A stretch of DNA of 64,000 nt from an uncultured Candidatus Saccharibacteria bacterium (GTDB lineage Bacteria > Patescibacteriota > Minisyncoccia > Phycocordibacterales > CSBR16-193): the NCBI GenBank assembly GCA_964559575.1, contig CAZLGQ010000001.1, forward strand, positions 7,067 through 71,066, written 5' to 3'. Shown piece by piece: positions 1,821 to 49,641 of this stretch (its first letter is position 1; each line of letters starts with the position of its first letter). The notes below the pieces were generated by a model that searched no databases, was not told where the DNA came from, and was given only the letters and a program-made list of their open reading frames with translations. The position numbers were made by a program, and so were the translations under genes.

Positions 1821-4800
1821 TTATATGATAATATTTATGATCCTGTTGGGAACAAAGAATACTTTTTTTATTTCTTTACCATTACACCATTTTGAAAAGA
1901 CTGGGGTTTTTTTAACCTCATCTAAAACGGTTTTTTCTTTAGAGTCTCTAGGTAGTTCTATACTACCTCTTGTTTTTCCATTTATTTGAAATATTATTTT
2001 TACATTTTCTTTTAATAGTACATCAGGGTTATATTTGGGCCAGTTTTTTTTATGAATTGAAGTTCTATTCCCAAGTGTTTCCCATATTTCTTCGGTTATA
2101 TGTGGAGCAAAAGGTGCTAAAAGAATTAAAAGATTTTCAAGATTTTCTTTTTTGATTTCTTCTTTTTCATCCATTAAATTAACCAAGATCATAAGAGAAG
2201 ATATTGCAGTATTGAAAGAAAAAGATTCAATATCTTCATTTACTTTTTTAATGGTTTTATGTAATGCGGTTTTTGTTTTTGTATCATTATTTTTATTTAA
2301 AGATACCTTTTTAGATAAATTCCAAACTTTTTCCAAAAATCTATGTGCTCCAACCGGACCATTGATATTCCAAGCTACTTCACCTTCAAAGGGTCCCATG
2401 AACATTATATATATTCTAGCCGCATCGGCTCCAAAATTCTTTATAATATCATCCGGACTTACTATATTTCCCCAACGTTTACTCATTTTTCTTCCATCCG
2501 GACCCAGTATAAGACCTTGATTTCTAAGAGCTATAAATGGTTCTTTTGTACTTACTAAATTTTCTTCGTATAAAAATTTATGCCAAAAACGTGAATATAT
2601 TAGATGCCTGGTGGCATGTTCAACACCTCCAACATAAAGATCAACCGGCATCCAGTATTTTTCCTTTTTCTGAGAAACAAATTCTTTATTATTACTAGGA
2701 TCAATAAAACGAAGATAATACCAACAGGATCCCGCCCATTGTGGCATGGTATTGGTTTCTCTTTTAGCTGAAGATCCACAGTTAGGACACTCTGTTTCAA
2801 CCCATGAAGAAATATTGGCTAAAGGGGATTCTCCGGTACCGGTAGGTTCATATGACTTAACTTCCGGAAGCTTAATTGGAAGATCTTTTTCCGGAACCGG
2901 AACTACTCCACATTTCTCACAATGAATTAAAGGTATAGGTTCACCCCAGTAACGTTGTCTGGAAAAGACCCAATCTTTTAATTTGTATGTAATTTTTTTC
3001 TTTCCTTCAACTTTCTTTCTTATCATCTCTTTTGCTTTTTCGCTTTCGATACCGGAGAGGTCTTCCGAGTTGGCTAGAACCCCACTTCCGATATAAGCAA
3101 AATCACCTTCTTTTTTTAACCATTCCATCCAGATGTCTATCTCTGCACAGGTGAGAGATTTAGCGGTCTCTTGGTTAAATTCAAGCCACTCTATATCATG
3201 TTTTTCCATTTCTACCTTTGAAATTTTCTTTCTCCTATTGCTTTTTAATTTGAAATGAACTGCAGTGGTATATGCTTTTCTGTTCTCATTTTTATGAGCT
3301 GCGTGATAATGGGCTTCCACTTGAAAAGGTGTCATCTTTTGAAATTCAAGATCAGTATAACCGGTTTCTTCTTCCACCTCTCTCTTTGCCGCTTTTACTA
3401 TATCCTCTCCTTCTTCCACTCCTCCGACTATAAATGTTCTCCAATTGAACTTTTTCCATTTTAAAAAGAGCATTTTACCGGAATCCGGATCTTCTACTAT
3501 TACATGAACAGTTTTCCTCTCCACCGTCTTTTTACCTTTTATGGGTGGAGTATATTTATCGATCCTTTTTGGATAGATGACATAATTTATTGGTAGGCCT
3601 TTTTTCGAGGCGAAATCAAAATCTCTCTCATCGTGAGCCGGAACCGCCATTATGGCCCCGGTTCCGTGGTTAGAAAGAACATAATCAGCGATCCATATAG
3701 GTATTTTTTTACCATTAACAGGATTTATTGCGTTTATTCCTTTTATTTCCACTCCTGTTTTATTTTTTTCCTCAGAAGTTCTTTGTAATTCTGTTTTTCT
3801 TTTTGTTTTATTTATATAGTTTTTAATTTCTTGTTTATTTTCTACAAAACTCCAAATTTCTTGGATCTTTTGATGCTCCGGAGCCACTACCATATAAGTA
3901 GATCCATAAAGCGTATCCGGTCTGGTAGTAAATACCGGAAGTGAGTCAGTTAAAAGTTTTTTAAGAGCCTTTTTAACCGGTAAAAGATCTTCTATGTCTT
4001 CTTTACTTCCTCCGTCTATATGTTTTCCGGTTTCTTTTGATCTATAAAGTCCTCTTAGGGGAAAATTTGGATTCAATTTTCCTTTTCTTTTAGTTGTCAG
4101 TATGACCTCTCTTTTATTTTTTTTATTTTTTATATCACCATTTGGGGTTGATAAAACCCAAACATCTTGCCAGTAAGCTTCCACTTCTCCTCCGTGTTTT
4201 TTAGCTATATTAGTATAATAACTAACCATCTTTTTACTTATCTGTTCTTTTGATAGTTTATTCTGCTCTTCTTCAGTTAAAACATTTCTTTTTACTTTTA
4301 TAGGATTATTTTTTTCACCCTTTATGTAAAAACCGGTATCTCCTGCCAGGATTGGTAAATTTGTTTTTTCTCTATAAGCCAAAGCTTTCTTTTCAGCATT
4401 TTTTAAAAGAGATACGCCTCCCTCAATAACTTCTATTTCTTTTATTCCTTTTTCCTTGGGAGTAAAAACTTTAATATCTAAACCTTCTGAGTTTAAAAGT
4501 TCCTGAACTCTTTCTTTTTTGCTTGGATTGTTACTTGCCAGAAGTATTTCTTTATATATACATACAGGAAAATCTATTTCCACACCTTGACTTTTCCCTA
4601 TCCAGTTTTTTTGAGAGTCTTTGATTGAATCCGGCCATTTATCTAAGAGATCAAGATCTTTTAAAAGGTCTTCGGCATAATCGGTTATCTTTAAAACCCA
4701 CTGTCTTACTGGCTTCTGTTCTACCTCAGAGTCACATCTCTCACAAAGACCATTTTCCAGATCTTCATTTGCTAGCCCAGTTTTACAAGACGGACACCAA

Positions 4801-5270
4801 TTTATTGGTTCGTTTGATTCAAACGCTAGACCTTTTTTAAACATCTGCAAAAATATCCACTGAGTCCATTTATAGTACTCCGGATCTGTGGTATTTATTT
4901 CACGTTTCCAGTCATAAGAAAGACCGATACTTGATAATTGTTTTTTATATCTTTCAACATTTTTTTTAACAACTTTTTTAGGATGAGTTTTATTTTTTAA
5001 AGCATATCCTTCAGCGGGTAAACCAAAAGCGTCCCATCCCATTGGGTGTAAGACATTAAAACCTTTCATCCTTAAATATCTTGAATAGGTATCTGTTGGA
5101 ACATAATTACGCAAATGACCCGCGTGAATACCTTCTCCTGAAGGATAAGGAAACATATTTAAAATGTATTTTTTTTCTTTTTTATTGCTTTCTTTGGTGT
5201 GATATAGTTTTGCTTTTTCCCACTTTTCCTGCCATTTCTTTTCTATTCTTTTATGATTATATTTCTTCAT
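1821..5270 (-). CDS. leuS: Leucyl-tRNA synthetase with two large inserted domains (ITPase/Ham1-like and Nudix)
   Basis: HIGH-type motif PYPSGEGIHAGHLRNY and KMSKS motif (RKMSKRWGN) are present. The editing-domain hallmark VFTTRPDTLYGSTYMVVAPEH and AVPAHDERDFDFA, and the C-terminal anticodon-binding region, are also present. At 1149 aa it is about 300 aa longer than canonical bacterial LeuRS. Confidence 0.9.
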   Translation of the reverse strand: MKKYNHKRIEKKWQEKWEKAKLYHTKESNKKEKKYILNMFPYPSGEGIHAGHLRNYVPTDTYSRYLRMKGFNVLHPMGWDAFGLPAEGYALKNKTHPKKVVKKNVERYKKQLSSIGLSYDWKREINTTDPEYYKWTQWIFLQMFKKGLAFESNEPINWCPSCKTGLANEDLENGLCERCDSEVEQKPVRQWVLKITDYAEDLLKDLDLLDKWPDSIKDSQKNWIGKSQGVEIDFPVCIYKEILLASNNPSKKERVQELLNSEGLDIKVFTPKEKGIKEIEVIEGGVSLLKNAEKKALAYREKTNLPILAGDTGFYIKGEKNNPIKVKRNVLTEEEQNKLSKEQISKKMVSYYTNIAKKHGGEVEAYWQDVWVLSTPNGDIKNKKNKREVILTTKRKGKLNPNFPLRGLYRSKETGKHIDGGSKEDIEDLLPVKKALKKLLTDSLPVFTTRPDTLYGSTYMVVAPEHQKIQEIWSFVENKQEIKNYINKTKRKTELQRTSEEKNKTGVEIKGINAINPVNGKKIPIWIADYVLSNHGTGAIMAVPAHDERDFDFASKKGLPINYVIYPKRIDKYTPPIKGKKTVERKTVHVIVEDPDSGKMLFLKWKKFNWRTFIVGGVEEGEDIVKAAKREVEEETGYTDLEFQKMTPFQVEAHYHAAHKNENRKAYTTAVHFKLKSNRRKKISKVEMEKHDIEWLEFNQETAKSLTCAEIDIWMEWLKKEGDFAYIGSGVLANSEDLSGIESEKAKEMIRKKVEGKKKITYKLKDWVFSRQRYWGEPIPLIHCEKCGVVPVPEKDLPIKLPEVKSYEPTGTGESPLANISSWVETECPNCGSSAKRETNTMPQWAGSCWYYLRFIDPSNNKEFVSQKKEKYWMPVDLYVGGVEHATRHLIYSRFWHKFLYEENLVSTKEPFIALRNQGLILGPDGRKMSKRWGNIVSPDDIIKNFGADAARIYIMFMGPFEGEVAWNINGPVGAHRFLEKVWNLSKKVSLNKNNDTKTKTALHKTIKKVNEDIESFSFNTAISSLMILVNLMDEKEEIKKENLENLLILLAPFAPHITEEIWETLGNRTSIHKKNWPKYNPDVLLKENVKIIFQINGKTRGSIELPRDSKEKTVLDEVKKTPVFSKWCNGKEIKKVFFVPNRIINIII

Positions 5271-30682: not shown

Positions 30683-30710
30683 TTATGATCGTTCCGATCG
30701 ACATAACTAA

Positions 30711-30974
30711 TCAGTCCCTCCAAGGAGAGTCCTTTTCTAAGGCCTCCTTTTGGCGCTTTGCTTGCTCATTCAAGCACAAAGCACAACTGATTTTCACGTC
30801 TATTGGAACGCGTTGGTCGTCGGTTGCCCCGAGGACAACTCCACACTTCTCGCATTTCAAAGTGCGTTTTTGCCCGTTCAGGCAATCAGAACAAATGACC
30901 GAGATGTTTTCTGGTACTCGCTCATCTGCTGTGGCGGCGAAAATACCGTCGCAGCTAATGCATACCAAAATCAC
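30711..30974 (-). CDS. Small double zinc-ribbon protein (internally duplicated CxxC...CxxC module), in a GC-rich island
   Basis: GTG start preceded by AGGAGG. Two homologous modules (ADERVPENISVICSDCLNGQKR and TDDQRVPIDVKISCALCLNEQAKR) each carry a CxxC-x17-CxxC spacing. Their nucleotide differences are mostly synonymous, which indicates purifying selection. Codon usage is GC-rich and unlike the host. Confidence 0.45.
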   Translation of the reverse strand: MILVCISCDGIFAATADERVPENISVICSDCLNGQKRTLKCEKCGVVLGATDDQRVPIDVKISCALCLNEQAKRQKEALEKDSPWRD

Positions 30975-31028
30975 CTTAAACCCCTCCTAGGTTATAGACA
31001 ACGACCCTAAAGCCGAGGTCTATCTGGG

Positions 31029-32873: not shown

Positions 32874-34118
32874 TCAAACAAAGTCGAGTCTTTTCCGTAC
32901 CTCTTTGACAACCGCTTTCGCTTCTTCTCGAGAATTGATGGACAGTCCGGTAACATCAATGCCACCGTGATAGAGCACACCGGGATTGGTTATGACCGCA
33001 AAAGGTTCTTGAGTCGATGGAACCAAAATCTCTTTCAGTTCACCAAACAGCTCTTTAAACCCTAAGCTTTTCCCGGTTGAAATGTGTTCATGCCAAAAGT
33101 GGTAACCGAAAGATCCGGGGTTACGGATCTTCGCCAATCGTTTTGACATCTCATAGATAAAAACTATTGCGCCTTTCCTGGGATTGAAATCAGTCCAGTA
33201 GACGTTTCCAGTTTCATCTATAAGAATATCACAACAGAAATAACCTTTGGCACCGGATCTCTGAAGATAAGGAACAAGTTTGGTTTCCAGATCTGTTCTG
33301 ATCCTACTCTCTATCTCTCTGGTAAGCCTAGTTGGAAAGGCTGTACCGGAATAAGACAGATTAGTGGATAGTTGATCAAAGATACCTATATCCAAAAACT
33401 TCCCATCTTCAGTGATCTCCCAATGAACACAGACTTCATCAACGATCTTGACCATCTGCTCTACGATGAAGGGGCTGCACATCCCTTCAACTGTTGGCAT
33501 TTTTGCCACAAGATCTTCATAAGATGAGATCTGATGCAATCCACCCAGATCTACACCACCCGTACCTCTTGAGGATTTCAGAAGAAAACCATTTCCATTC
33601 TTACCTGTAAGGAATGACTTGGTTACCTTGAGAAGTTCTTCCGGATCCTTACCACCCACCCAAGGGGCGGTTTTTAATCCCAGTTCTTCACAAAGCAACT
33701 TAAAGTTATACTTACAGGCAAAAGGAATGGATACCTCAAAGTTACAGTAAGGAGGAATCCCCAGAATTGAAGAAAGATAACGTTCACTTTCTTCTATCCA
33801 GAAAAACTCCAATCGGGCAGATCGACCATTAATGGACCCCAGAATCTCATCCTGAACTTCTTGCTTGGAGATTACCAAATCGGCTAAAGTAAGATCTCTA
33901 TCAAACGGACCAGCTACGATCATTCTCGGTAATGTAAAACCGAGATCCTGCCAATAGGCAAGATAATCAGAATCGATCGGTTTGGTAGTGACCACTACAT
34001 GACCATCTCCAACTTGGCACAGTCCGCCACGTTGATCAAAATCTTGCTCCATCTCAATACCTCGAAAGAGACTATTGCTCTGAGTCTCGATCATAACACG
34101 AGTTTTTTCGCCTTTCAT
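32874..34118 (-). CDS. ATP-grasp family ligase (substrate unknown), GC-rich and compositionally foreign
   Basis: C-terminal ATP-grasp core LLKSSRGTGGVDL, FIVEQMVKIVDEVCVHWEI and YFCCDILIDETGNVYWTDFNPRKG (the D-x-N catalytic loop). Local GC is about 45% against about 30% in neighbouring genes. Confidence 0.6.
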   Translation of the reverse strand: MKGEKTRVMIETQSNSLFRGIEMEQDFDQRGGLCQVGDGHVVVTTKPIDSDYLAYWQDLGFTLPRMIVAGPFDRDLTLADLVISKQEVQDEILGSINGRSARLEFFWIEESERYLSSILGIPPYCNFEVSIPFACKYNFKLLCEELGLKTAPWVGGKDPEELLKVTKSFLTGKNGNGFLLKSSRGTGGVDLGGLHQISSYEDLVAKMPTVEGMCSPFIVEQMVKIVDEVCVHWEITEDGKFLDIGIFDQLSTNLSYSGTAFPTRLTREIESRIRTDLETKLVPYLQRSGAKGYFCCDILIDETGNVYWTDFNPRKGAIVFIYEMSKRLAKIRNPGSFGYHFWHEHISTGKSLGFKELFGELKEILVPSTQEPFAVITNPGVLYHGGIDVTGLSINSREEAKAVVKEVRKRLDFV

Positions 34119-35617: not shown

Positions 35618-36613
35618 TTACAGTTCCTTCACCCAAACTTCTTTAGAACCTTGGTTCAAATCAAACATTCGTTCTTTTTTGAAACCAAAGTTTAAAAAGT
35701 CAGGCAAAATACCCACTAAGGGCGGTGCTTGTTCAGCACAAAGGTACAACTGCTTTTTCCGGAGTTTCATGGACTTATTGACCGCATACTTGATCAATGG
35801 AGTCAAAACCTCCGAAACGGCTAACTCAGAAGAGTAGCCAAGGTAACTCATTTTCATCTTCCCGTTGACTTCAGGGTTTAGCATCAGAGCTCCATAGGGA
35901 TATCCGTCAATTGCGAAAACGACGAATTTATCGATATTCTCAGCAATGAATGACTCAAAAACACAGCCATTTAGCAAAGACTTGAGAATCCGAGTGACTT
36001 CCGGAATATCAGACCTCGTTGCAGATCGAACCTTCTTATATGAAGATCCGGCTCTGTAGATCATTGTTCCGGAACCTTTCCCTGTTAGAAACTCTTCCAA
36101 AAAAGCTTCCCTGCGACAGATGTTGGTAAAGTGAACACGAGAGATTCCTATGTCACAAAAACCAACCGCATACTCAAGACACGTCCTCATCAAGCCATTG
36201 ACTACATTCTCTTCCTCTAGAAGTTCTTGTGCTTCCATATCCGTCATTTCACTAACAAGCTTCCCCTTATTGAAGATGCCGTCAGTATTACAGAGAAAGA
36301 AGAACTTGGAAGCTTTGAGAACCTCCACCAAGGTAAAGAGATCTTTCTCTTCAACTACTTCGTGGTACTTCACTCCACGTTCCTGAAGCGTATTTTCCAA
36401 AAAAGGAATATCCACGCTGTTACAAAGAAAATGGAGATCGACCCCTAAGCTATCAAGAAGATGAATGTCTTCAATAATAGCTTCAAAGTTTGATTCCTTC
36501 TTCCTTGGAAAAGCACTGCAGACAAGAACACGCTTCCCATTCCAACGGATCAGGCTACTCAACATCTCTCTGGTAGGACGTCCATCCATGACCATTTCCT
36601 CCTCACTTTCCAC
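35618..36613 (-). CDS. Amino-acid N-acetyltransferase-like protein: amino-acid-kinase fold plus C-terminal GNAT (short ArgA/NAGS-like architecture), GC-rich
   Basis: TDGIFNKGKLVSEMTDMEAQELLEE...VNGLMRTCLEYAVGFCDIGISRVHFTN...LTGKGSGTMI matches the C-terminal half of the AAK fold (TDVdGV...GGM.pKl.aa..A...Gv..v.I..g...GT.I). The C-terminal roughly 120 aa (LGYSSELAVSE...) resembles GNAT. GC is about 45%. Confidence 0.45.
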   Translation of the reverse strand: MESEEEMVMDGRPTREMLSSLIRWNGKRVLVCSAFPRKKESNFEAIIEDIHLLDSLGVDLHFLCNSVDIPFLENTLQERGVKYHEVVEEKDLFTLVEVLKASKFFFLCNTDGIFNKGKLVSEMTDMEAQELLEEENVVNGLMRTCLEYAVGFCDIGISRVHFTNICRREAFLEEFLTGKGSGTMIYRAGSSYKKVRSATRSDIPEVTRILKSLLNGCVFESFIAENIDKFVVFAIDGYPYGALMLNPEVNGKMKMSYLGYSSELAVSEVLTPLIKYAVNKSMKLRKKQLYLCAEQAPPLVGILPDFLNFGFKKERMFDLNQGSKEVWVKEL

Positions 36614-37739
36614 ACATGTCTTGTATCAAACGGACATATTGTGAAACAACTTTGTCCGAAAAATACTTTTCATGCATGAATTCATTCGGTTTATGAGCCT
36701 GTTGAATGGATCCGGGTCCGTATATCACTGATTCAATACCGGCGGAGTTAAAAACACCCCCTTCAGTATTAAAAGAAGTTGACGCCGATGTCTTACCGGA
36801 TACCTTTTCAACGCTCTTAACAAGCGACGATCCAGTGTCCGTTTCCATCGGAGGAGTTGGAGTTCTTCCAAAACTCACCTTAACTTCCAAACCGTCATCG
36901 ATACCCTCGTTAACGGAAATGAAGTCAGAAAAAGCTCGAAAGACATCATCAACATCCTGACCTGGGATTGGTCTGATATCAAGCTCAATACGACAGTAGT
37001 CCGCTATGATGTTCTTAGCGGAGTTATCTCCGGTCGTAACGACACCAACATTGAGAGTTGGATAAGTCGGGTCAAACCGAGGATCAGAAATGACCTCTAG
37101 ATGCCTCTTGAAGTCATTTATCTTCCGAAGAACCAAAGGGAGAGCTGTTTGCACAACGTTCAATCCCTCATTGGGACGCGAACTGTGTACACGCTTACCC
37201 TTAAGTTCCACCTTGACATACATATACCCCTTGTGGAGAATGTACGACTCAAGCTCGGTAGGCTCTCCGATCAGAACCGTATCTGCGAATTTTCCTCTGT
37301 CGTTGATGAGCTTCTTAGCACCAACACAACCAACCTCTTCATCACTCGTAAAAACAAGTCCGAAAGGCTTTTTGAGTTTGTGCTCTTGGATGTATGAAGC
37401 GGCCTTCATGGCTACTGCCAGAAAACCTTTCATGTCGCAAACCCCTCTGCCGAAGTACTTATTCCCCTTCTTGGTAAGAAAAAGAGGATCAGTACTCCAA
37501 TTCCTGATATCGTAAGGAACGGTATCCATATGTCCTGACAAGGCGAAGTGAGTATCATGACCGCCCTTCTTGGCGATCATGTTTACCTTCTTTACGCCCT
37601 TTTGGATATAAGGGTACTGTTCAATAACGAAACCTTCGTCTTCCAAAAACTCACTGATGAAATCAGCGATGCTTCCGGTTTCCTTATTACTTACAGTGTC
37701 AAAGGAAATGAGTTTCTCAGCGATCTCGATCGTCTCCAT
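36603..37739 (-). CDS. M20-family deacylase (acetylornithine deacetylase ArgE / DapE-like), GC-rich
   Basis: LSGHMDTVPYD and GRGVCDMKGFLAVAM motifs. Start moved to Met24 (METIEIAEKLISFDTVS), which has a strong GGAGAGGA SD. Overlaps the downstream AAK-GNAT gene by 11 nt. Confidence 0.7.
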   Translation of the reverse strand: METIEIAEKLISFDTVSNKETGSIADFISEFLEDEGFVIEQYPYIQKGVKKVNMIAKKGGHDTHFALSGHMDTVPYDIRNWSTDPLFLTKKGNKYFGRGVCDMKGFLAVAMKAASYIQEHKLKKPFGLVFTSDEEVGCVGAKKLINDRGKFADTVLIGEPTELESYILHKGYMYVKVELKGKRVHSSRPNEGLNVVQTALPLVLRKINDFKRHLEVISDPRFDPTYPTLNVGVVTTGDNSAKNIIADYCRIELDIRPIPGQDVDDVFRAFSDFISVNEGIDDGLEVKVSFGRTPTPPMETDTGSSLVKSVEKVSGKTSASTSFNTEGGVFNSAGIESVIYGPGSIQQAHKPNEFMHEKYFSDKVVSQYVRLIQDMCGK

Positions 37740-37856
37740 GGCTATCCTCTCCTCTACTCTCGGGCCAGAATTTTTATTTGACAAAGAACTAACTATAAGT
37801 CCAATCAAAAAAATACCACTTTATAGAAAAAAAAGTCAAAACAATTTTACTAAAAA

Positions 37857-48149: not shown

Positions 48150-48560
48150 TCACTTAAATCCTCCCAATAATTCTTGATGCTCTTCATCCTTTTGACAGAT
48201 CAGACGAAGACCTGAATGATTCAGTCTGGAAAGACCCCAAGAGATTCGATCAGAACTCAATGACAGAACACCATCTACAGAATAAACCTCTCTAACATAA
48301 AGTTTTGGAGGTCTTCCCTTTAAGCAAGCTGATGTTCCGGTAACGATATACATATCGTCATTTCCATCAAGTAAAAGATCTCCTCTGGTTAGATCTGCCC
48401 AGTCATCAAAAACCAAACCTTCGATCAGATCTTTTCTGGTTCTAGGATCCATGGTCCATGATTGGTCATAATAGATAAAACTTACAAAAAGAATTACCAT
48501 TAAAACCAAAAAAATTCCACGGACCATAATCTCTGCAACCTTTTTCTGGATCATGACCAA
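48150..48560 (-). CDS. Hypothetical protein with N-terminal TM anchor (moderately GC-enriched)
   Basis: 136-aa ORF with TM segment GIFLVLMVILFVSFIYY. No family was recognised. Confidence 0.35.
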   Translation of the reverse strand: MVMIQKKVAEIMVRGIFLVLMVILFVSFIYYDQSWTMDPRTRKDLIEGLVFDDWADLTRGDLLLDGNDDMYIVTGTSACLKGRPPKLYVREVYSVDGVLSLSSDRISWGLSRLNHSGLRLICQKDEEHQELLGGFK

Positions 48561-48705
48561 TCCTCCTTTTTACAAAAACCGGTTCACTAAATCCACTTTG
48601 ACCAACCTGACTGCTATTTCTCTATTTTAATAACACAAATTCTAATTTTAGTCAAAATTAGAATTATTTTAAACCCCAAAAAATCTATATTTTAAGAAAT
48701 TTTTA

Positions 48706-48889
48706 TTTTGGGGAAGTCTGACTTCCCCAAAAACTTACCACTCTACCACTCTTATCTTAATTCCAAAAAATCCTGTTCTGGGGAAGTCTGACTTCCCCAG
48801 AACCCTACTACTTAAATATAAAGTCGCTAAATCATTAGAATTGATTAAAAAAAAACTTGGGGAAGTCTGACTTCCCCAAGTTTTTTTTA
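48706..48889. repeat. Tandem array of three palindromic hairpin repeats (core GGGGAAGTCTGACTTCCCC) with copy-specific compensatory stem extensions
   Basis: Copies lie at 48706..48732, 48775..48803 and 48855..48881, spaced 70-79 bp apart. The extended stems differ but stay complementary (TTTTGGGGAAG/CTTCCCCAAAA, GTTCTGGGGAAG/CTTCCCCAGAAC, AACTTGGGGAAG/CTTCCCCAAGTT). Partially similar AT-rich units lie between them. A 12-bp-arm palindrome AATTCTAATTTT-agtc-AAAATTAGAATT sits at 48640..48667. Confidence 0.5.
48855..48889. terminator. Bidirectional intrinsic terminator (third copy of the hairpin repeat)
   Basis: A8-AACTTGGGGAAG-TCTGA-CTTCCCCAAGTT-T8. It lies 30 nt downstream of the stop of the 48919..49641 minus-strand gene. 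Confidence 0.55.
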
Positions 48890-48918
48890 TTGAACAAGAG
48901 ATCTTTTTATTTTTTTTA

Positions 48919-49641
48919 TTATTTTTGATGACCTACCGGCATTATATAAACAGGTACTTCATCTTGTGATAACTGTAATAGATCATGTACTTTATCATCA
49001 TCAAAAGCTCCAACTGCCACCGTACCTAATCCTAAACTCTCAGACTGTAAATAAATATTTTGAGCAACATGACCTACTTCTATATGAACATAGCGCTCTC
49101 CTCTTTTACCATAACGCTCAGTTGTTCTCTCATACACAGCAGTTAAAATTAAATTTATTGGAGCTTCTGCAATAAATGTTTGATTCAAAGCTACTTGACT
49201 TAATTTTTCACTAATATCTTCATCAGAAATTCTTTTAATACTATGACTATCAGGTTTATATTTATAAACTCCAGAAAGTAAATCATCAGTTTCTTCTCTT
49301 ACTGTTATATAAACTGTTAAAGGATAAGTAGCTCCAGCTGATGGTGCTGAACGATAACCACCATCATCTGTTATACCTTGAGCAGACCATAAAACCTGTC
49401 CTAATTTATCCAAGTCAACCGGTTTGTCCAAATAGTTTCTTATACTTCGTCTGGATTCAATAGCTTCTTCAATTGACATCTGTCCTTCTTTTTGTGTTTC
49501 CGGTAATTTAATGATCTGATTTAAATCACTTTTATCATTGGTCATGGAATCTAAATTATTATTTAATAAAATATAACTGACTAAAAAAATCAGCAAACCG
49601 ATCACTAAAAATGCTAAAAGATATTTTCGTTGGAATACCAT
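48919..49641 (-). CDS. Nitroreductase-family protein (SagB-type dehydrogenase-like) with N-terminal TM anchor
   Basis: RRSIRNYLDKPVDLDKLGQVLWSAQGIT...RSAPSAGATYPLTVYITV and EVGHVAQNIYLQSESLGLGT fit the nitroreductase fold. Confidence 0.6.
   Translation of the reverse strand: MVFQRKYLLAFLVIGLLIFLVSYILLNNNLDSMTNDKSDLNQIIKLPETQKEGQMSIEEAIESRRSIRNYLDKPVDLDKLGQVLWSAQGITDDGGYRSAPSAGATYPLTVYITVREETDDLLSGVYKYKPDSHSIKRISDEDISEKLSQVALNQTFIAEAPINLILTAVYERTTERYGKRGERYVHIEVGHVAQNIYLQSESLGLGTVAVGAFDDDKVHDLLQLSQDEVPVYIMPVGHQK

Follow-up and report, generated by a model that had tools for sequence, protein, structure and literature searches.

Repetitive extragenic palindromes (REPs) and bacterial interspersed mosaic elements (BIMEs), together with the nuclease RAYT (TnpA-REP), constitute the REPtron of E. 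coli and other Proteobacteria (Nunvar 2010, PMC2817692; Ton-Hoang 2012, PMC3333891; Messing 2012, PMC3479197, PDB 4ER8). A Y-x3-N-P motif is common to all subclasses of class 2, the RAYTs, while Y-x4-Q is found in IS200 and class 3 (PMC6006769), and NP(L/V)(R/K)xG is the RAYT motif of Nunvar et al. (PMC2817692). Class 3 TnpA-Y1 proteins have been reported from Planctomycetes, Acidobacteria and Proteobacteria (PMC6006769). REP/RAYT systems have so far been characterised almost entirely in Proteobacteria, and our full-text literature searches found nothing linking REP, RAYT, REPIN or IS200 to Patescibacteria or the candidate phyla radiation (CPR). Here we analyse a 64-kb stretch of DNA from an uncultured Candidatus Saccharibacteria bacterium (hereafter, the window), in which three copies of a short palindrome lie between two genes. 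These hairpins very probably represent a REP-type cluster of a REP/RAYT-like system of the Patescibacteria, and we are similarly confident that this system consists of a cognate pair, namely a palindrome of ~21–25 nt with a GTCWGAC centre and a ~240-aa Y1 HUH nuclease related to RAYT/TnpA-REP.

The array occupies an intergenic region (48561–48918; coordinates are positions in the window) between two genes on the minus strand. Exactly three copies of the 19-nt core GGGGAAGTCTGACTTCCCC are found there, at 48710–48728, 48780–48798 and 48859–48877, with start-to-start spacings of 70 and 79 nt, in agreement with a first-pass annotation of the window that had reported three palindromic cores 70–79 bp apart, each with a different, perfectly complementary stem extension:

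48706–48732, hairpin copy 1: perfect 27-nt palindrome, TTTT-GGGGAAGTCTGACTTCCCC-AAAA, with a T-tract on neither strand.
48733–48774, spacer between copies 1 and 2: unique sequence, containing TACCACTC twice, without homology to the spacers of other arrays.
48775–48803, hairpin copy 2: perfect 29-nt palindrome, GTTCT-core-AGAAC, followed on the minus strand by AGGATTTTTT.
48804–48846, spacer between copies 2 and 3: unique sequence.
48847–48888, hairpin copy 3: core inside A9...T8, with a perfect palindrome at 48848–48888 whose arms, AAAAAAAACTT and AAGTTTTTTTT, are 20 nt long.

On the plus strand, the A9 run preceding copy 3 lies at 48847–48855 and the T8 run following it at 48881–48888. All three copies share one central base and are arranged head-to-tail, separated by unrelated spacers of 42–44 nt, in which the shared motifs pointed out earlier (ccaaaaaatc, ttagaatt) are present and weak. 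Folded as single-stranded DNA, copies 1, 2 and 3 reach −11.9, −14.4 and −19.5 kcal/mol (z −5.5 to −7.9), and the RNA fold of the whole intergenic region has a z of −6.6. The window has a G+C content of about 30–32% and holds nine G+C-containing perfect hairpins with a stem of at least 7, three of which are these copies. No further match to GGGGAAGTCTGACTTCCCC was found in the window even allowing 3 mismatches (0 expected, 100 shuffles), nor were other TCWGA-centred hairpins or looser cores. The array escaped a tandem-repeat finder, its spacers being unrelated.

The identical array is present on three short contigs from other samples (L020–L022; JGI 3300027784, ENA ERZ27266004 and ERZ27266011), the sole difference being one extra T in the T-run. 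These contigs start or stop within the array, which suggests an effect of the repeat on short-read assembly. Judged by cysteinyl-tRNA synthetase (CysRS), the best named relatives of the window organism are a 'Patescibacteria group bacterium' (64–65%) and 'Candidatus Pacebacteria' (60%). The closest relative found (L052, 76% CysRS identity) loses synteny before the array, and its 17 kb contain no family hairpin.

The core recurs in other genomes, which excludes the case, envisaged in the first-pass annotation, of a sequence unique to this locus that arose by simple duplication of a terminator. An exact-core scan covering one genome per species (596 Gb) found 28 cores in 19 loci, where by our own estimate ~4 matches to a 19-mer would be expected by chance. 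Nineteen of these cores fall in ten loci of Patescibacteria, several with 2–5 copies, which are assigned to Paceibacterota, Campbellbacteria, Saccharibacteria and 'Patescibacteria group', together with one contig labelled Clostridiales. The latter (L017, PWMW01000084.1, 'Clostridiales bacterium') is a 2.7-kb contig with five cores, whose nuclease shares 87% identity with the one in L004, a Campbellbacteria metagenome-assembled genome (MAG) from the same sediment series; mis-binning of a Patescibacteria contig is the probable reason for the label. Singletons outside the CPR (Planctomycetes, Gammaproteobacteria, one IMG/VR contig and others), among them G+C-rich hosts, were not accepted as family members, their number being close to chance and their cores lacking the T...A flanks. 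The sole IMG/VR contig with an exact core (L028/L053, IMGVR_UViG_3300020198_001070, 56,193 bp) carries a single AT-flanked hairpin, aatatGGGG...CCCCattat, which we treated as a chance or terminator match. A scan of JGI metagenomes added two arrays from the sample of the window organism, one with four copies next to rplS and tRNA-Leu (L026) and one with five (L036).

Across 42 family copies, 38 lie outside any open frame of at least 100 codons, and in 40 the core is preceded by T and followed by A. Comparison of the window array with all fetched loci (blastn) found no homology beyond the hairpin plus 1–6 nt, the spacers being unrelated. Unit periods across loci are irregular, ranging from 50 to 110 bp; several loci have unique spacers of 27–60 nt between identical palindromes, and some spacers are duplicated (L026, L017). 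Copies also occur away from the nuclease gene described below: L042 holds ten copies at two sites in 12.5 kb, three of them 6.5 kb from that gene, and one Campbellbacteria MAG has seven cores on three contigs, only one of which carries it. Of the several roles proposed in the first-pass annotation, that of a REP/MITE-like family is thus supported: the palindrome is extragenic, present in multiple copies and dispersed in several genomes of Patescibacteria, and it also brackets a gene for a Y1 HUH nuclease. As a possible marker of orientation, the central base (T or A) was rejected, since it is unlinked to the orientation of the flanks (L005, L017).

Two comparisons bear on variation within arrays and genomes. 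L036 (1215–1268) and L040, whose nuclease proteins are identical, are set apart by a clean indel of 54 bp, which corresponds to exactly one core-plus-spacer unit, so the arrays are dynamic and polymorphic in copy number. In L012 (1200–1254) and L015, the family hairpins GTGGATGTCTGACATCCAC and GGGGAAGTCTGACTTCCCC lie 17 nt apart and differ by two compensatory pairs, indicating two REP subtypes in one genome. At L004, L017 and L042 (for example L017, 880–1118), the cores sit inside a ~110-bp module that recurs in direct orientation, flanking the nuclease gene on both sides as well as at other positions, and that reads core – (a/g)acccttattttaagccatattttt – AT-rich second hairpin (TTTTTGA..TCAAAAA) – second cccttattt(c/t)aag copy – core. 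This module (core – cccttattttaagcc... – core) is absent from the window (blastn). Many nuclease homologues are known only from contigs of ~0.9–1.5 kb, and several array loci end a few bases from a core, an observation drawn from the homologue hit list and from L020–L022, L025, L030, L036 and L043; it suggests that family repeats systematically break short-read assemblies of CPR genomes.

At L017, L004, L002 and L036/L040, the cores bracket an open reading frame (ORF) of 233–240 aa that matches the Pfam family Y1_Tnp (PF01797, IS200-like) and contains an NHFHL (HUH) motif and an invariant tyrosine. A database search returned 655 relatives, all named ones from Patescibacteria and some automatically annotated as 'RayT', and a full profile search gave 231 clusters (50% identity, E ≤ 1e-30). 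Six more distant homologues (45–79% identity) have their own palindrome on both sides, 0–59 nt from the start or stop codon:

L042, both sides of the gene: GGGGATGTCWGACATCCCC.
L045, both sides of the gene: GTGGATATCAGATATCCAC.
L047, both sides of the gene: GGCAAGGTCWGACCTTGCC.
L049, both sides of the gene: GTAGGAGTTAAACTCCTAC.
L050, both sides of the gene: ACACAAGTCTGACTTATGT, as doublets.
L051, both sides of the gene: ATACCAGTCAGACTAGTAT, as doublets.

The nuclease gene is therefore flanked on both sides by cognate palindromes at all ten distinct loci examined (L002, L004, L017, L036/L040, L042, L045, L047, L049, L050 and L051). Where orientation is readable, the flanking repeats are direct, as at L002 (30-nt shared 5′ flank), L004 (shared modules) and L049 (42 nt, 81%); inverted doublets on both sides of the gene occur at L050 and L051 only. 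The surroundings of the gene differ from lineage to lineage. For one homologue, P0012, about 24 contigs show identical neighbours, the gene being set among housekeeping genes, a stability that fits a resident gene rather than an active insertion sequence.

The predicted structure of the nuclease is a Y1 HUH fold, closest to 4ER8, that also matches the TnpA of ISDra2 and IS608, and its tyrosine aligns with Y132 of ISDra2. Searches of the PDB by sequence gave noise when made with a single protein, and a profile search returned a weak ISDra2 match only. The consensus from the tyrosine onwards is Y-I-M-V-K-N-x-F-E, with K151 and N152 invariant, and 3 of the 36 nuclease members match the IS200 model.

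Hairpin and nuclease vary together, each lineage having its own stem sequence. Around the conserved GTCWGAC centre, 7 of 8 stem pairs are changed on both sides between lineages, the T-N-A centre being invariant, and 96.4% of cells are paired, compared with 68% in shuffles (0/500 reach the observed value) and at most 49% with the partners slid. At L042, the core differs by one compensatory pair (A6/T14 to T6/A14) at a nuclease identity of 79%. To judge from these sequences, compensatory change is real inside the core, between lineages.

The stem extensions behave differently from what the first-pass annotation had proposed, which was that their variation is compensatory and under selection. Among the 42 members of the family, 19 and 21 are paired at flank positions 2 and 3, where column composition predicts 19.6 and 21.7, and the mean extension is 2.05, compared with 1.79 ± 0.17 in permutations. 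Extensions of at least 4 bp number 9 against 3.5 expected, a count reached in 17/5000 permutations; this tail rests largely on the window, as leaving out its three copies gives 6 against 2.9, reached in 297/5000. The letters of the window extensions (CTT/AAG, TTCT/AGAA(CC)) turn up repeatedly as flank variants within the family, whose flanks do not covary beyond the ±1 T/A pair. Long stems are real in the window but are poor evidence of compensatory evolution; they may be due to longer units of a subfamily, A/T-rich palindromic insertion sites, templated hairpin correction or local selection for termination.

By analogy with E. coli TnpA-REP and with the TnpA of IS608 and ISDra2, we propose that the palindrome would extrude as a hairpin in single-stranded DNA, and that the nuclease would read the shape and loop of this hairpin before cutting and rejoining beside it. 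New copies would thus be seeded in extragenic DNA, and clusters could expand or contract through further insertion or through recombination between identical cores. At the window locus, the outcome would be a cluster in the 3′ region of a nitroreductase gene, in which copy 3 would terminate transcription and copy 2 possibly also.

That region and its surroundings contain the following further features:

48919–49641, minus strand: upstream gene of the nitroreductase family (PF00881), with 30 nt between its 3′ end and copy 3.
48150–48554, minus strand: downstream gene, 134 aa, no Pfam hit.
48638–48665: AT-rich palindrome, AATTCTAATTTT-AGTC-AAAATTAGAATT, with 12-nt arms and a 4-nt loop, unique in the window.

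Read on the minus strand, copy 3 is a hairpin with 20-bp arms followed by T9, 30 nt past the nitroreductase stop codon, and is predicted to be the intrinsic terminator of that gene. Copy 2, followed by a T6 tract on the same strand and also flagged by a consensus terminator scan, may be a back-up. The earlier reading of copy 3, the only copy described as flanked by A8/T8, as a bidirectional terminator fits the sequence, given the hairpin with T9; copy 3 is structurally bidirectional, with no gene converging on it. Copy 2 also has its T6. T-tracts are missing from most family copies elsewhere, so termination appears to be a locally exploited property and not the reason for the family. For the locus itself, the consequence would be modest, a terminator made from a mobile palindrome.

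The start of the 134-aa gene is the ATG at 48554, with AGGAGG ahead of it at 48567–48562. This ATG is also used by gene callers in other assemblies, where the exact 134-aa product is recorded, while the TTG start at 48560 given by the ORF tool (136 aa, 48150–48560) overlaps the AGGAGG ribosome-binding site. The protein is membrane-anchored; further neighbours of the array are GH130 and GNAT genes. The AT-rich palindrome is outside the hairpin family; it is as real as first described, though it lies 2 nt from the position given then (48640–48667). Within its loop and right arm, read on the minus strand, is a −35-like TTGACT (48655–48650), with TATTAA (48632–48627) 17 nt on. This pair, whose −10 is non-canonical, lies ~70 nt upstream of the 134-aa gene; it was spotted by inspection and not reported by the consensus scan. 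Tentatively, the palindrome may be a promoter or operator of that gene.

Elsewhere in the window, a 1149-aa leucyl-tRNA synthetase ORF (1821–5270, minus strand) has Ham1p_like (ITPase, residues 242–336) and NUDIX (585–701) hits, an unusual fusion or insertion. Between 30001 and 38000, several genes have a G+C content of 41–48%, compared with the 32% mean (for example 30685–30990, 32874–34118 and 35618–37808), and this segment may be horizontally acquired.

The case for a REP-type cluster, following the REPtron concept, rests on the combination of a nuclease gene bracketed by its own hairpins, solo and clustered extragenic copies, and co-evolution of the two. Several observations weigh against it. 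The nuclease gene is absent from the 64-kb window, where tblastn found no homologue, and only one cluster, of three copies, is present in these 64 kb; classically, REPs have more than 100 dispersed copies within a whole genome. All 36 nuclease members match the NCBIfam model REP_Tyr_transpos weakly (23–31 bits against a cut-off of 80, best E 7.7e-9), and they have Y-x3-K-N in place of the class-2 Y-x3-NP and NP(L/V)(R/K)xG (PMC6006769, PMC2817692). Repeats flanking the gene are direct, as in IS200/IS605, while RAYTs are described with inverted ones, and the head-to-tail window array with its unrelated spacers is unlike the inverted doublets of REPINs and BIMEs. The covariation table was compiled by searching for palindromes, which biases its ascertainment toward pairing. 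Finally, the nuclease that would connect the window to the system, P0004, is linked to it circumstantially. Flanked by the identical core, it comes from JGI 3300027784 and ENA ERZ27266004, both of which also hold the window's array, and its G+C content of 35.7% is within the range of the window's genes; its neighbouring gene, however, has 41.6% G+C, compared with the 32% window mean. P0004 is thus a possible candidate for the cognate nuclease of the window genome, and it is at its locus that the two samples differ by the 54-bp unit described above (L036 and L040). The element would work like a REP/RAYT system, but owing to the non-canonical motif, the direct flanking repeats and the head-to-tail arrays, we do not file its nuclease as a canonical RAYT.

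Some of these points are shared by the only serious alternative, in which an IS200/IS605-type element that is still mobile moves whole as hairpin-gene-hairpin and leaves solo hairpins behind, the hairpins seen here being its ends or its MITE/PATE-like remnants. The flanking modules are direct on one strand, like left and right ends, the N at Y+5 resembles the Y-x4-Q spacing of classes 1 and 3 (PMC6006769), the predicted fold also fits the TnpA of ISDra2 and IS608, and gene neighbourhoods vary between lineages. This explanation differs from a REP-type cluster mainly over domestication of the gene, and we regard it as unlikely. Much less probable again is a local triplication of an ordinary intrinsic terminator. 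In its favour, every copy follows the end of a gene, copy 3 has the textbook anatomy of hairpin and T-run, and copy 2 has its T6, but the unrelated spacers argue against tandem duplication, the identical 19-mer is found in other genomes and around the nuclease gene, copy 1 has no T-tract, and G+C-rich hairpins are otherwise scarce (nine in 64 kb including these three).

A reading as an operator array, with three sites for a dimeric transcription factor controlling the 134-aa gene, would account for perfect palindromes upstream of a gene start and for the adjacent palindrome (48638–48665) that overlaps a −35-like hexamer. It fares slightly worse still, since the core also occurs downstream of genes, next to genes for tRNAs and ribosomal proteins, and to either side of the nuclease gene, the spacing is irregular (50 to 110 bp), and stem covariation points to a hairpin rather than to base readout in duplex DNA. 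The stacked protein-binding sites suggested in the first-pass annotation are likewise disfavoured by the same core occurring in unrelated gene contexts. Least probable of all is an array that carries spacers, CRISPR-like or otherwise, or a set of consecutive small RNA genes, despite identical short palindromes with unique spacers of 27–60 nt at several loci. The repeat is only ~21 nt long (the CRISPR criterion being at least 23 nt) and its period irregular, some spacers are duplicated (L026, L017), no cas-like genes were found among the neighbouring genes, and neither window spacer has an exact match in IMG/VR viral contigs; a more extreme reading, in which the unique spacers are acquired sequences, finds no support. 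The small structured RNAs that had also been suggested are contradicted by the lack of any Rfam family reaching threshold, either at gathering or at E ≤ 1 (best WsnRNA46, 33.6 against 65.3 bits, a generic hairpin match), by spacers that are unconserved between loci, and by no conserved promoter being seen.

Returning to the REP-type cluster as the preferred explanation, a broader proposal, to which we give a little less than an even chance, is that Patescibacteria own an undescribed class of REPtron. It would combine a ~240-aa Y-x3-KN nuclease with a perfect palindrome whose GTCWGAC is conserved across classes, form head-to-tail arrays in some lineages including that of the window, vary in copy number within populations, and persist, as an intermediate between IS200/IS605 and RAYT/REP, in repeat-stripped genomes. 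The repeat type itself is already known as selfish or domesticated, and the variant seen here is apparently undescribed. What is unusual is the combination of a hairpin loop conserved throughout the phylum, a catalytic motif that has diverged and a direct-repeat architecture. If confirmed, this would be a new lineage between IS200/IS605 transposons and domesticated RAYTs, persisting in streamlined genomes of ~1 Mb, and the copy-number polymorphism of its arrays could provide strain markers. Such a system would be of interest to specialists in mobile elements and CPR genomics and would introduce no new principle.

Among known systems, Rho-independent terminators resemble copy 3, and weakly copy 2, in having a hairpin and T-tract at a gene 3′ end; they differ in that the stem here belongs to a conserved dispersed family, and in that the T-tract is missing from copy 1 and most copies elsewhere. 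Class 3 TnpA-Y1 (Quentin et al. 2018, PMC6006769) appears similar, as described, in its extended N-terminal conservation, in Y-x4-(Q) type spacing, and in REPtron-like flanks without GT[AG]G and with a CnGA tetranucleotide, CWGA being the centre of the present hairpins. It has Q, not N, at Y+5, and its CnGA is a 5′ foot and not a loop. With IS200/IS605 elements (IS608, ISDra2), the system shares a Y1 HUH enzyme with its tyrosine aligned to Y132 of ISDra2, hairpins, imperfect or perfect, that would be read on one strand, and direct orientation of the gene-side hairpins. It differs from them in its 240-aa protein with RAYT-like extra elements, in having a single fixed copy of the gene per context and solo hairpins remote from any gene, and in that neither distinct left and right ends nor tnpB are seen.

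The REPIN-RAYT system of Pseudomonas (Bertels & Rainey 2011, PMC3116915) offers a parallel in its non-autonomous hairpin repeats tied to a single-copy RAYT, as the nuclease here may also be, and in inverted REP doublets making a longer hairpin, as in the sister lineages L050 and L051. Single palindromes in direct arrays are instead the units of the window and its closest relatives, and copy number appears low. Compared with the REPtron, the nuclease lacks both Y-x3-NP and NP(L/V)(R/K)xG and falls far under the NCBIfam cut-off. The head of the window repeat is (T)GGGG and not GT[AG]G, although sister lineages have GTGG (L045, L012) and GTAG (L049), and others GGCA, ACAC and ATAC. The window palindrome is perfect and 'double-footed', the repeats beside the gene are direct, and the arrays run head-to-tail with unrelated spacers instead of alternating Y and Z units, in a host phylum of ~30% G+C with reduced genomes. 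What the two systems have in common are short G+C-rich extragenic palindromes that are multi-copy and in many cases clustered, a Y1 HUH gene that lies between its own REPs and co-evolves with them while palindromy is kept through paired changes, a predicted fold nearest to 4ER8, and REPs that double as 3′-end hairpins.

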